64,000 nt of DNA, taken from an uncultured Caldisericota bacterium. GTDB taxonomy: Bacteria > Caldisericota > Caldisericia > B22-G15. How positions within the stretch are numbered: the first letter of the stretch is position 1; each line of letters begins with the position of its first letter. A model generated the notes under the pieces. The model did not search any database and had not been told where the DNA came from. It was given only the letters and a program-made list of their open reading frames with translations. The position numbers and the translations under genes were made by a program. The DNA lies in the NCBI GenBank assembly GCA_964640995.1, contig CAZXJJ010000006.1:1964-65963 (forward strand). The letters are read 5' to 3'. Below, one piece after another: positions 4,301 to 6,829 of the stretch.

Positions 4301-4757
4301 ACCATTTAAAACAAAGGTATTAGTTGGTAATGCTTATATAATGAAACTTAATCACCTTGTTCTTGATAAAGTTCATGCAAGATCAACTGGAACATACTCT
4401 CTTGTTACGCAACAACCTCTTGGTGGAAAATCTCAATTTGGAGGTCAAAGATTAGGTGAAATGGAAGTTTGGGCTCTTGAAGCATATGGAGCAGCAAATT
4501 TATTGCAGGAAATGTTAACTGTTAAATCTGACGATATTGAAGGAAGAAGAAAAGCATATGAAAGCATAGTTAAGGGAAAAGATATTGAAGAGGTTGGAAT
4601 TCCAGAATCATTTAAGGTTTTAGTGAGAGAATTAAGAGGTTTAGGTATAAATATAAAAACTATTCCTGATTTTGAAAAGAAAGAAGAGAAAAAAGAAGTC
4701 AAATTTTTCTTACCAACCAGAAAAAGAAAGAATAAAAAGAAAGAGGTGAGTCAATGA
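1332..4757 (+). CDS. rpoB: DNA-directed RNA polymerase subunit beta
   Basis: 1141-aa product with hallmark beta-subunit blocks (e.g. ...[33 protein letters not shown]..., ...[45 protein letters not shown]..., ...[14 protein letters not shown]...). Lysine-rich C-terminal tail. The stop overlaps the start of the next gene. Confidence 0.97.
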   Translation: [1141 protein letters not shown]

Positions 4758-6829
4758 TGACTGAAAGATCAAAAATAAGAAATGTTTCATTGGTTGCGCA
4801 TAGTGGCGCAGGAAAAACTTCATTAGTTGAATCTATGCTTTATGTATCAAAATTTTTACAAAAAAAGGGAAGTGTAGATAAAGGAAACACTGTTTCAGAT
4901 TATGAACCTGAAGAAATAAAAAGGCATATAAGTTTATCTACCTCTGTTATTCCAATTAATTGGAAAGGATTTAAAATAAATGTTCTTGATACTCCAGGTT
5001 ATGTTGAATTTTTATCTGAAGTTAAAGGCGCTTTACTAGTTTCTGAAGCTAGTTTGCTTCTCGTTGATGCAACATCTCATGTAGAAGTTGGAACTGAGCG
5101 AGTGTGGGATTTCGTAAAAGAAGAAAATTTACCTCTCGCATTTATTGTTAGCAGAATGGATAGAGAGAATGCAAATTTTAAAGAAGCAATTTCAAGTATA
5201 AGAAAATTTTTTGGAAATGATGCTGTACCAATTATGATTCCAATTGGAGAAGGTTTGAATTTTAAAGGTTATGTTAACATTATTACTCAAAAAGGAAAAA
5301 TATTAGATGGAGGAACAATCAAAGAGATTGATATTCCACAAGAACTAAAAAGTGATTTTGAGAATTACAGAAATGAATTGATAGAAAAAATAGCAGAAGT
5401 TGATGAAGAACTTTTAAATAAATATTTAGGTGAAGGAACTTTAAATCAAGAAGAGTTGATGAGAGGGCTCCTTTTAGGTGTAAAAAATAGAGCTCTTTTT
5501 CCTATACTTGCCTCTTCAAGTATTAATGATATAGGCACTGAAGAGATTCTTGATTTTATTGTTAACGAGTTTCCTGAACCATATTTAAATGAAAAAAGAT
5601 TCGGTTTTGATCCTAAAACAAACGAAATAGTTGTGAAAGATTTTGATATGAATTCACCATTTTCGGGTTTAGTTTTTAAAACTATAATTGATCCTTTTGT
5701 TGGAAGAATAAATTATATAAAGGTTATTACAGGAAAATTAGTTTCTGATACAAAAGTTTATAATATAAATAAAGATCAGGAAGAAAGGGTATCTTCAATT
5801 GGTTTTATTATTGGTAAAACTCAAGAGAAAACACAGGAAATTAAATCAGGTGATATAGGAGTTATAACAAAATTGAATGTTACATCAACTGGTGACACAT
5901 TAACTCAACCTGGTATGAATGTTAAATATAACTATTTTGAAATACCATATCCAATTATATCATATGCTGTTGAACCAAAAAGAAAAGAGGATGAAGATAG
6001 ATTAACTTCAGCACTTTTTAAAATTGCCGAAGAAGACCCAACTTTTATTGTTGAGAGAAATGATATAACTAAACAGTTAATAATAAGAGGAACTGGTGCA
6101 ACGCATATTCAGGTTGTTCTTGAAAGAATCTCAAGAAAATTCGGAGTTGAAGTTAATTTAAAGAAGCCTGAAATTGCATATAAAGAAACAATAAAAGGCA
6201 CAGCCAAAGCAGAAGGAAAATATAAAAAACAAACAGGTGGTCATGGACAATATGGACACTGTTTTATTGAAATAAACCCACTAGAAAGAGGAAAAGAATT
6301 TGAATTTGTTGACAAAATTTTTGGTGGAGCAATACCGAAACAATACATTCCTGCTGTTGAAAAAGGAATTAGAGAAACAATGAAAGAAGGAATAATTGCG
6401 GGTTATCCTGTTGTTGATGTTCAAGTAGTTTTATATGATGGATCATATCACCCAGTCGATTCATCAGAACTAGCATTCAAAATTGCTGCATCAATGGCAT
6501 TTAAAAAAGCATTTGTTGAAGCAAATCCAATTCTTCTTGAGCCCATTCTTGAAGTAGAAATTAGGGTTCCAGAAAGTTTTTTAGGAGATGTCATATCTGA
6601 TTTAAACACAAGAAGAGGAAAAATTCTTGGTATGGATTCTGACAAAGGAATTTCAATAGTGAGGGCACTTGTTCCAGAATCAGAGATGCTTAGTTATGGA
6701 TTAGATCTTGCTTCAATAACTCAGGGAAGAGGTTATTTCACTGCTAAGTTTTATAAATATGATGAAGTTCCACAAAAGTTGGCAGAAGAAATTATTAAAA
6801 AGAGAAAAGAGGAGTTAGAGAAATCATAG
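4754..6829 (+). CDS. Elongation factor G paralog with divergent GTPase motifs (EF-G-like, catalytic His replaced)
   Basis: 691 aa with all five EF-G domains recognisable, including the domain IV tip QTGGHGQYGHCFIEI. The G motifs differ from EF-G: G1 AHSGAGKTS (EF-G AHIDAGKTT), switch I RHISL (RGITI), G3 DTPGY (DTPGH), G4 SRMD (NKMD). ATG 4754 overlaps the rpoB stop (ATGA). Its stop at 6829 is followed by GGAGGTG and the rpoC start. Confidence 0.85.
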   Translation: MMTERSKIRNVSLVAHSGAGKTSLVESMLYVSKFLQKKGSVDKGNTVSDYEPEEIKRHISLSTSVIPINWKGFKINVLDTPGYVEFLSEVKGALLVSEASLLLVDATSHVEVGTERVWDFVKEENLPLAFIVSRMDRENANFKEAISSIRKFFGNDAVPIMIPIGEGLNFKGYVNIITQKGKILDGGTIKEIDIPQELKSDFENYRNELIEKIAEVDEELLNKYLGEGTLNQEELMRGLLLGVKNRALFPILASSSINDIGTEEILDFIVNEFPEPYLNEKRFGFDPKTNEIVVKDFDMNSPFSGLVFKTIIDPFVGRINYIKVITGKLVSDTKVYNINKDQEERVSSIGFIIGKTQEKTQEIKSGDIGVITKLNVTSTGDTLTQPGMNVKYNYFEIPYPIISYAVEPKRKEDEDRLTSALFKIAEEDPTFIVERNDITKQLIIRGTGATHIQVVLERISRKFGVEVNLKKPEIAYKETIKGTAKAEGKYKKQTGGHGQYGHCFIEINPLERGKEFEFVDKIFGGAIPKQYIPAVEKGIRETMKEGIIAGYPVVDVQVVLYDGSYHPVDSSELAFKIAASMAFKKAFVEANPILLEPILEVEIRVPESFLGDVISDLNTRRGKILGMDSDKGISIVRALVPESEMLSYGLDLASITQGRGYFTAKFYKYDEVPQKLAEEIIKKRKEELEKS

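Follow-up and report, generated by a model that had tools for sequence, protein, structure and literature searches.

Introduction

Paralogs of elongation factor G (EF-G) belonging to the EFG II, or EF-G2-type, subfamily are widespread, and the roles reported for them include that of a stress factor in mycobacteria and that of an active GTPase in Thermus. In Bacteroides, EF-G2 is reportedly an energy-saving translocase. Here we describe such a gene lying between rpoB and rpoC, which encode the beta and beta' subunits of RNA polymerase, in a 64-kb stretch of DNA from an uncultured Caldisericota bacterium (GenBank assembly GCA_964640995.1, contig CAZXJJ010000006.1); the whole stretch is hereafter termed the window, and all coordinates follow its numbering. 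The open reading frame (ORF) at 4754-6829 on the forward strand encodes 691 amino acids and, as judged from its sequence, is a functional member of the EFG II subfamily. We think it fairly probable that this paralog serves translocation on the ribosome as an auxiliary factor whose GTP hydrolysis is weak or non-canonical, and that it is produced constitutively alongside RNA polymerase.

EFG II has been defined by a relaxed RGITI motif with serine in the fourth position, together with six type I and seven type II diagnostic positions (Margus et al. 2011). The paralog has in common with this subfamily its five domains with a G' subdomain, the serine of the RGITI motif, a leucine after the P-loop, a P-loop glycine and, as seen in related genomes, coexistence with fusA, the gene for canonical EF-G. 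It departs from it in carrying alanine at position 19 (serine in most of its relatives), where the family majority has glycine, in the SRxD and SSS forms of G4 and G5 that are found in the window and its closest relatives (the window clade), and in being embedded between rpoB and rpoC.

Amongst individual members, Mycobacterium smegmatis EF-G2 (PDB 9K0Z/9K10), a non-essential paralog alongside EF-G1, likewise has DTPGY, a G4 motif whose first residue is not asparagine (TKLD) and an altered P-loop. It has been called stress-specific, however, whereas the Caldisericia gene lies in a housekeeping operon and encodes canonical domain IV loops. The EF-G2 of Bacteroides thetaiotaomicron (fusA2; PDB 7UVP/8DMF) gave the best superposition of the predicted paralog structure (template modelling (TM) score 0.92), yet is only 31% identical in the structural alignment, is 718 amino acids long, and possesses a 26-residue EF-G2-specific region. 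Bacteroides fusA2 stands alone under a promoter of its own, rising 238-fold on carbon limitation while fusA falls, whereas the Caldisericia gene forms part of a growth-linked rpoBC unit. Thermus thermophilus EF-G-2 (PDB 1WDT/2DY1) is an EFG II protein of the same fold with GHAGSGKTTL, DAPGY and TKLD motifs; unlike the paralog it is the 665-residue product of a stand-alone gene, and intrinsic and ribosome-dependent GTPase as well as poly(Phe) activity have been reported for it. Its match to the paralog (467 bits) was weaker than that of T. thermophilus EF-G1 (567 bits). Canonical EF-G (fusA, EFG I) resembles the paralog in length, in the order of its domains, in its G' subdomain and in the domain IV tip, at approximately 40% identity, but the paralog is without the AHIDAGKTT, RGITI, DTPGH and NKMD motifs, scores below the canonical profile cutoff, and is placed outside the str operon and in a separate clade.

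Assignment of the paralog to the EFG II subfamily

The best NCBIfam match of the paralog was NF009381, at 897 bits against a cutoff of 583. It fell just short of the cutoff for the EF-G equivalog TIGR00484 (655.2 vs 659.4 bits), and was below cutoff for both NF009377, ‘EF-G-like protein EF-G2’ (622.9 vs 890 bits), and NF058620, the Bacteroidetes EF-G2 (584 vs 1000 bits). The positional orthologs in Caldisericum exile and in a third Caldisericia lineage (locus L074) were also best matched by NF009381, and the canonical fusA products of these organisms reached 963-1095 bits on TIGR00484. On the models for Tet(M)/(O)-type proteins, RF3, LepA and BipA it scored 326, 169, 132 and 150 bits, far under the respective cutoffs of 775, 473, 534 and 757. 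Pfam detected all five EF-G domains (GTP_EFTU, EF-G_D2, EFG_III, EFG_IV and EFG_C), the G' subdomain was present, and residues 6-682 aligned end to end with T. thermophilus EF-G in a phmmer search (E = 4e-169).

Diagnostic positions were read in a MAFFT alignment using T. thermophilus EF-G1 numbering, and 10 of the 13 were matched by the paralog (L28, S64, T316, G360, K379, D224, K498, K499, E543 and G633). Five of the six type I positions (G19, L28, S64, T316, G360, K/R379) agreed, position 19 being alanine, whilst at the type II positions (D224, V258, L272, K498, K499, E543, G633) the paralog had D, I, I, K, K, E and G, comprising five exact and two conservative matches. The canonical fusA products of C. 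exile and of a sister lineage carried A, T, T, I/V, A and G at the type I positions, which are EFG I states, and canonical fusA products of related genomes had EFG I states at the other matched positions as well. In a neighbour-joining tree of 57 sequences with 200 bootstraps, computed from distances in numpy and comprising no spdEFG sequences, all EFG-II-like proteins including the paralog were split from canonical EF-G at 100%. A first-pass annotation, made from the DNA letters without database searches, had mentioned divergent EF-G paralog subfamilies of the EFG-II type, which agrees with Margus et al. (2011). It had also allowed that the gene might prove to be a standard fusA, from which both profile and tree placement set it apart.

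GTPase motifs and domain IV

The nucleotide-binding motifs and the domain IV loops of the paralog were located as follows.

4796..4822, forward strand: G1/P-loop AHSGAGKTS, residues 15-23 (AHIDAGKTT in EF-G; Asp replaced by Gly), with the EFG-II hallmark Leu24 next
4922..4936, forward strand: switch I/G2 RHISL, residues 57-61 (RGITI in EF-G; Ser for the Mg-coordinating Thr)
4988..5002, forward strand: G3/switch II DTPGY, residues 79-83 (DTPGH in EF-G; Tyr in place of the catalytic His)
5150..5161, forward strand: G4 SRMD, residues 133-136 (NKMD in EF-G; clade-specific form of NKxD, with the Asp kept)
5513..5521, forward strand: G5 SSS, residues 254-256 (clade-specific form of GSA)
6236..6259, forward strand: domain IV loop I GGHGQYGH, residues 495-502, part of the decoding-site tip together with loop II
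6446..6469, forward strand: domain IV loop II YHPVDSSE, part of the decoding-site tip together with loop I

The alignment bore out the AHSGAGKTS, RHISL, DTPGY and SRMD readings of the first-pass annotation, the catalytic histidine and NKxD being truly replaced; the G5 change from GSA to SSS was absent from it. Its statement that every G motif had diverged together describes, for the most part, established traits of the EFG-II family. The P-loop consensus A/G-x4-GK-T/S is intact. Glycine occupies the P-loop Asp position in EFGII (Atkinson 2015), and the EFG-II switch I consensus is xxxSx (Margus 2011). The switch I threonine had been described as lost; it is instead replaced by serine, the published EFG-II state, which retains a hydroxyl, so that the Mg ligand is not simply missing. 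Homologs of approximately 50% identity from Bacillota, Coprothermobacterota and other phyla carry H[G/S/M]GAGKTS and DTPG[Y/F/L]. The His-to-Tyr, P-loop Asp-to-Gly and switch I Thr-to-Ser substitutions can thus be regarded as family traits, since they also occur in stand-alone EFG-II proteins, in T. thermophilus EF-G-2 and in M. smegmatis EF-G2.

NKxD at G4 and gSAx at G5 are conserved in EFG II (Margus 2011), and it is here that the window clade departs from the subfamily, with SR[M/I]D and SS[S/T], respectively. The C. exile paralog keeps NKVD and GSA, and that of L074 keeps NKMD. The G motifs are invariant within the window clade, and only the G4 and G5 forms are peculiar to it.

Three EF-G residues (T. 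thermophilus numbering) are replaced in the paralog: His87 by Tyr, Asp22 by Gly and Ile21 by Ser. In EF-G these residues touch the gamma-phosphate and the sarcin-ricin loop and belong to the hydrophobic gate. The GK[T/S] residues, Ser64, DxxG and the G4 aspartate are kept. The diverged motifs had been taken to predict a GTPase-impaired or mechanistically altered protein; the tyrosine alone, however, is no sign of an inactive GTPase, given that T. thermophilus EF-G-2 with DAPGY is reported to hydrolyse GTP and to translocate.

The same motifs bear on whether the paralog might be a dedicated ribosome recycling or rescue factor, which the first-pass annotation had offered as one interpretation and for which spdEFG2 and mitochondrial EF-G2 would be the analogues. 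Precedents do exist for EF-G paralogs that split translocation and recycling between them. However, the recycling paralog mitochondrial EF-G2 keeps its G motifs and the catalytic histidine, and the one EFG-II member tested, M. smegmatis EF-G2, was unable to recycle. The paralog also possesses EFG-II diagnostic residues and groups with EFG II apart from canonical EF-G, in a tree from which spdEFG is absent. The suggestion thus found no support, and we consider a recycling or rescue function highly improbable.

Predicted fold and selective constraint

The AlphaFold2 model of the paralog had a mean predicted local distance difference test (pLDDT) score of 88.3 and a predicted TM-score (pTM) of 0.79. 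It could be superposed along its entire length on structures of EF-G bound to the ribosome, with TM-scores of 0.85-0.92 to EF-G and EF-G2, the highest being that to ribosome-bound B. thetaiotaomicron EF-G2, and 0.88 that to M. smegmatis EF-G2 (9K0Z chain). The five domains and GGHGQYGH tip recognised in the first-pass annotation are therefore supported by Pfam, by the phmmer alignment and by this superposition.

Two relatives at 91-93% identity served as comparators for pairwise ratios of non-synonymous to synonymous substitution (dN/dS).

Paralog, whole gene: 0.05-0.06
rpoB: 0.04-0.05
rpoC: about 0.05
Paralog, domain IV: 0.004-0.009, the most constrained part
Paralog, G domain and domain II: 0.06-0.12

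Purifying constraint on the paralog is comparable to that on rpoB and rpoC. In EFG II, domains IV and V evolve more slowly than the G domain and domain II (Margus 2011), and the paralog behaves in the same manner.

These data bear on the main rival at the level of the protein, namely that the paralog is a non-translocating, ribosome-binding regulator similar to M. smegmatis EF-G2, binding the non-rotated 70S ribosome or the 50S subunit with its G domain off the sarcin-ricin loop and adjusting or damping translation while moving no tRNA. The G3 tyrosine and the non-NKxD G4 motif are common to both proteins, the mycobacterial one being called stress-specific and being without ribosome-dependent GTPase or recycling activity, and the paralog model resembles the 9K0Z chain. 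Against this, domain IV loops I and II hardly differ from those of canonical EF-G and lie in the most constrained part of the protein, which fits a translocation function involving contact with tRNA and mRNA; the gene resides in a growth-related operon and not under a stress promoter; and identity to M. smegmatis EF-G2 is just 34% in the structural alignment. A regulator of this kind appears unlikely.

Distribution and origin of the rpoB-EFGII-rpoC arrangement

The closest homologs of the paralog, at 73-91% identity, were all labelled Caldisericia, and the order tuf-rpmG-secE-nusG-rplKAJL-rpoB-paralog-rpoC-DUF554 was found at all of their loci. Embedding between rpoB and rpoC is not confined to this DNA: it is common to C. 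exile and to another Caldisericia lineage, the loci of which were found via EF-Tu. In the complete genome of C. exile AZM16c01 (AP012051.1) the order is rpoB, paralog (674 aa), rpoC, rpsL, rpsG, fusA (693 aa), tuf and the S10 operon, and L074 displays the same order with a paralog of 687 aa. The three lineages are deeply separated: compared in pairs, rpoC is 49-51% identical, the paralog 46-48% and fusA 57-59%.

At approximately 46 loci of more distant homologs, belonging to other phyla, neither rpoB nor rpoC was found within 8 kb; two annotated examples were stand-alone. In a search with rpoC, identity fell from 77% to 54% at the next lineage, a sister lineage in which rpoC directly overlaps rpoB and rpsL-rpsG-fusA comes next, with EFG II encoded separately as a stand-alone gene. 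The three embedded paralogs were monophyletic in 79.5% of neighbour-joining bootstraps, whilst without the third lineage the Caldisericia paralogs grouped in only 21%. A single ancient insertion in the Caldisericia ancestor, retained since, would be the simplest reading. The flanks have been reshuffled around an intact triplet: in the window clade rplJL precedes it and DUF554 follows, whereas in C. exile and L074 it stands apart from rplJL and rpsL-rpsG-fusA-tuf comes after it, with rplJL in C. exile succeeded by reverse-strand genes.

Such a history raises the alternative that the location is a frozen accident, in which the gene landed once between rpoB and rpoC and has persisted since excision or rearrangement would disrupt essential rpoC expression. 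The position would then have no meaning beyond housekeeping-level expression. This explanation competes over location only and is compatible with a translocase role for the protein; we regard it as quite possible, if somewhat short of probable. It accords with the single origin that the monophyly implies, with the stand-alone state of EFG II in the sister lineage and all other phyla sampled, and with the finding that embedded paralogs have no indel and just six scattered derived residues in common when compared with 41 stand-alone relatives. Conversely, the triplet has stayed intact despite reshuffling of the flanking operons, and the overlap has been conserved together with the Shine-Dalgarno sequence within rpoB.

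In a Bacillota lineage (L078-L080, 5001-7088), a stand-alone EFG-II gene was found divergent from rimP-nusA-ylxR-infB. A wider link between EFG II and transcription genes was considered and set aside as probably a coincidence, since no other EFG-II locus adjoins rimP-nusA-infB. At L015 (6706-8912) the paralog is split in two frames, with approximately 107 extra nucleotides and a duplication of residues 320-335; this is most likely an assembly artefact of a co-assembled metagenome-assembled genome (MAG) and not a pseudogene.

The rpoB-EFGII-rpoC arrangement is already present in the public complete genome AP012051.1, and no paper describing it was found. The literature searched, including the full text of Margus et al. 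(2011) by term search, yielded no description of a gene between rpoB and rpoC. A study of 204 genomes of Proteobacteria, Acidobacteria, Firmicutes and Tenericutes describes insertions between operons and between rplL and rsmC; in a term search of that study, a gene intervening between rpoB and rpoC went unmentioned.

A canonical fusA alongside the paralog

The only other EF-G-family translational GTPase in the window is a canonical LepA (EF4), at 30558-32336 on the forward strand. Taken by itself, this would accord with the paralog being the only or main EF-G of the organism, that is, a highly diverged fusA. In C. exile and L074, however, a canonical fusA is present in the same cluster, downstream of the paralog, such that coexistence of the two genes is certain for C. 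exile. As for the window clade, the C-terminal part of an EF-G lies directly upstream of tuf on two contigs, spanning 484 aa on L069 and 82 aa on L070. The longer fragment shares 57-60% identity with canonical fusA and 44% with the paralog. In secE, nusG and rplK, L069 shows 100% identity to L015, a locus with rpoB-paralog-rpoC. Through these relatives, coexistence in the window clade appears well supported, and the expectation of the first-pass annotation that a canonical fusA would lie elsewhere was borne out in related genomes. A diverged sole EF-G is scarcely conceivable.

Metagenome contigs break, or may be wrongly joined, at tuf; the loci concerned are L001, L060, L061 and L067, where the contig ends at tuf, L068-L071, and L074 versus L075/L076. 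There are two copies of tuf in C. exile. The contig breaks at tuf, together with identical EF-Tu proteins in two contexts, suggest that tuf is duplicated and that gene order across it is possibly chimeric; joins at tuf in MAGs (e.g. fusA-tuf-secE) were for this reason used as evidence of fusA presence and not of gene order.

Gene junctions and operon context

The features surrounding the paralog are listed below.

232..357, forward strand: L10 leader RNA, a cis-regulatory element heading the rplJL-rpoB transcription unit (Rfam RF00557, 64.7 bits vs a gathering score of 44)
333..1282, forward strand: rplJ (L10) and rplL (L7/L12) (NF000955 and TIGR00855)
1286..1309, forward strand: attenuator-like terminator in the rplL-rpoB spacer, a G+C-rich hairpin and T-run with a 10-bp perfect stem including 6 GC pairs, GAACCCCGAAATTTTTCGGGGTTC then TCTTTTAT
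1332..4757, forward strand: rpoB, RNA polymerase beta, 1141 aa (NF001616, 1469 bits)
4743..4749, forward strand: Shine-Dalgarno GAGGTGA for the paralog, inside the last rpoB codons, read directly
6829..6835, forward strand: Shine-Dalgarno GGAGGTG for rpoC, its first base being the last base of the paralog TAG (6827-6829)
6843..10892, forward strand: rpoC, RNA polymerase beta', 1349 aa, TTG start (TIGR02386, 1574 bits)

Coordinates and profile matches upheld the first-pass description of a 691-aa EF-G homolog between rpoB and rpoC, with an ATGA overlap at its start and GGAGGTG plus a TTG start for rpoC at its end. As read from the sequence, the paralog ATG (4754-4756) and the rpoB TGA (4755-4757) overlap by 4 nt, and 13 nt, Shine-Dalgarno included, separate the paralog stop from the TTG at 6843. 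Overlaps of -4 and -1 nt constitute the classical geometry for termination-reinitiation. At all window-clade loci the aagaggtga upstream of the paralog start is identical, with a slightly variable spacer downstream, and the overlap takes the ATGA or TAATG form. Overlap and Shine-Dalgarno are thus kept at every locus of this clade, and occur in a different form in C. exile, in which the junctions comprise GGAGG, a 20-nt overlap of paralog and rpoB, and an 8-nt gap to a TTG-initiated rpoC. The translational coupling proposed by the first-pass annotation fits this tight packing: rpoB and the paralog are probably coupled, on good sequence grounds, whilst a coupling between paralog and rpoC, though plausible, is less strongly indicated.

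The rplL-rpoB spacer housing the hairpin is 49 nt in length. The hairpin looks like the classical rplL-rpoB attenuator, which we presume, by analogy with E. coli, to lower RNA polymerase expression relative to L7/L12. No comparable terminator was found between rpoB and the end of rpoC, and a promoter scan was uninformative, promoter-like matches being fewer than in shuffled sequence. We infer that the paralog is co-transcribed with the genes for beta and beta' and made in stoichiometry with them. The GTG at 333, where the longest rplJ ORF starts, falls within the L10 leader, and the true rplJ start is therefore probably farther downstream; in relatives, rplJ is called at 173 aa.

Recent horizontal transfer of the paralog is not suggested by its composition, as its GC content and GC at third codon positions (GC3) match those of rpoB and rpoC. 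A TTG start of rpoC was observed in every Caldisericia lineage examined. The subunits vary in length by lineage (rpoB, 1141 aa vs 1376-1398; rpoC, 1349 aa vs 1234-1266), differences wide enough to imply lineage-specific insertions.

Gene order of this kind could also be read as the mark of a transcription-translation coupling factor, in which the paralog, assembled co-translationally with beta and beta', would physically link RNA polymerase to the lead ribosome or load onto it, or pace the polymerase with that ribosome. What points this way is gene order, with close packing (in the window, the 4-nt overlap and 13-nt gap) kept in three lineages whose rpoC is approximately 50% identical. Opposed to it are the lack of any extra domain, tail or shared insertion, the mere six scattered derived residues relative to stand-alone EFG II, and the stand-alone state of the family everywhere else sampled. 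The functional tie to transcription that the first-pass annotation had offered is therefore a matter of gene order alone, the embedded proteins having no insertion, extension or notable patch in common, and we hold such a factor to be very unlikely.

Proposed role of the paralog

In the auxiliary translocase role that we favour, an EFG-II gene would have relocated into the rpoB-rpoC pair in the Caldisericia ancestor and stayed there since. Its product would bind the ribosomal A-site and GTPase centre in the manner of EF-G and would still bind guanine nucleotide, but would forgo the sarcin-ricin-loop- and His-activated hydrolysis of EF-G. Its role would then be auxiliary, that of a slower translocase or a factor bound to the ribosome, with weak, absent or non-canonical hydrolysis, as in characterised EF-G2. 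The B. thetaiotaomicron EF-G2 is reported, in work of 2023 by Han et al., to translocate slowly and without GTP hydrolysis. The H88Y substitution nearly abolishes the GTPase of mycobacterial EF-G1, M. smegmatis EF-G2 is without ribosome-dependent GTPase, and EFGII is able to translocate slowly (Atkinson 2015). Co-transcription with beta and beta', combined with translational coupling to beta, leads us to propose constitutive production at RNA-polymerase-like levels. As for the position itself, expression coupling or a frozen insertion in a hard-to-break operon would be likelier than a physical partnership with RNA polymerase.

Several points weigh against this proposal. T. thermophilus EF-G-2, with DAPGY and TKLD, is reported to possess both intrinsic and ribosome-dependent GTPase and to translocate, and M. 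smegmatis EF-G2 is apparently a stress regulator and not a translocase. Nucleotide binding could be weakened or modified by the SRMD and SSS changes in a manner unpredictable from sequence. Reinitiation and coupling drop steeply with distance (Huber et al. 2023), which over the 13-nt spacer renders paralog-rpoC coupling less certain than that at the rpoB overlap. The distance tree is of moderate support. Lastly, the 64-kb window holds no canonical fusA, this gene being shown for relatives only.

Other features of the window

Six tRNA genes (Pro, Arg, His, Arg, Lys and Leu) are clustered at 11639-12153 on the forward strand, downstream of rpoC and right after DUF554, and account for a local rise in GC downstream of rpoC. 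Three further tRNAs are located at 14287-14508 (reverse strand) and 22447-22522 (forward strand). Two large proteins, at 19105-22356 (reverse strand) and 28012-30168 (forward strand), have copper amine oxidase N-terminal-like domains, one of them together with NHL/beta-propeller repeats and a cohesin domain; both are probably cell-surface proteins.

Implications

The interruption of the rpoB-rpoC pair described here is rare and ancient, and may serve as a synapomorphy of the class. It also calls for caution in annotation pipelines, in which the paralog and fusA are both named ‘elongation factor G’. Were the paralog truly a stoichiometric partner of RNA polymerase, which seems very doubtful, it would represent a dedicated transcription-translation coupling factor built on a translocase scaffold. 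The Caldisericia provide a natural case of an EF-G2-type paralog hard-wired into the most conserved transcription gene pair and apparently produced with RNA polymerase during growth, while a normal EF-G is encoded only a few genes off. C. exile, which is in culture, could separate dosage coupling from a real link to transcription, and could reveal whether EF-G2-type factors serve as constitutive housekeeping components.

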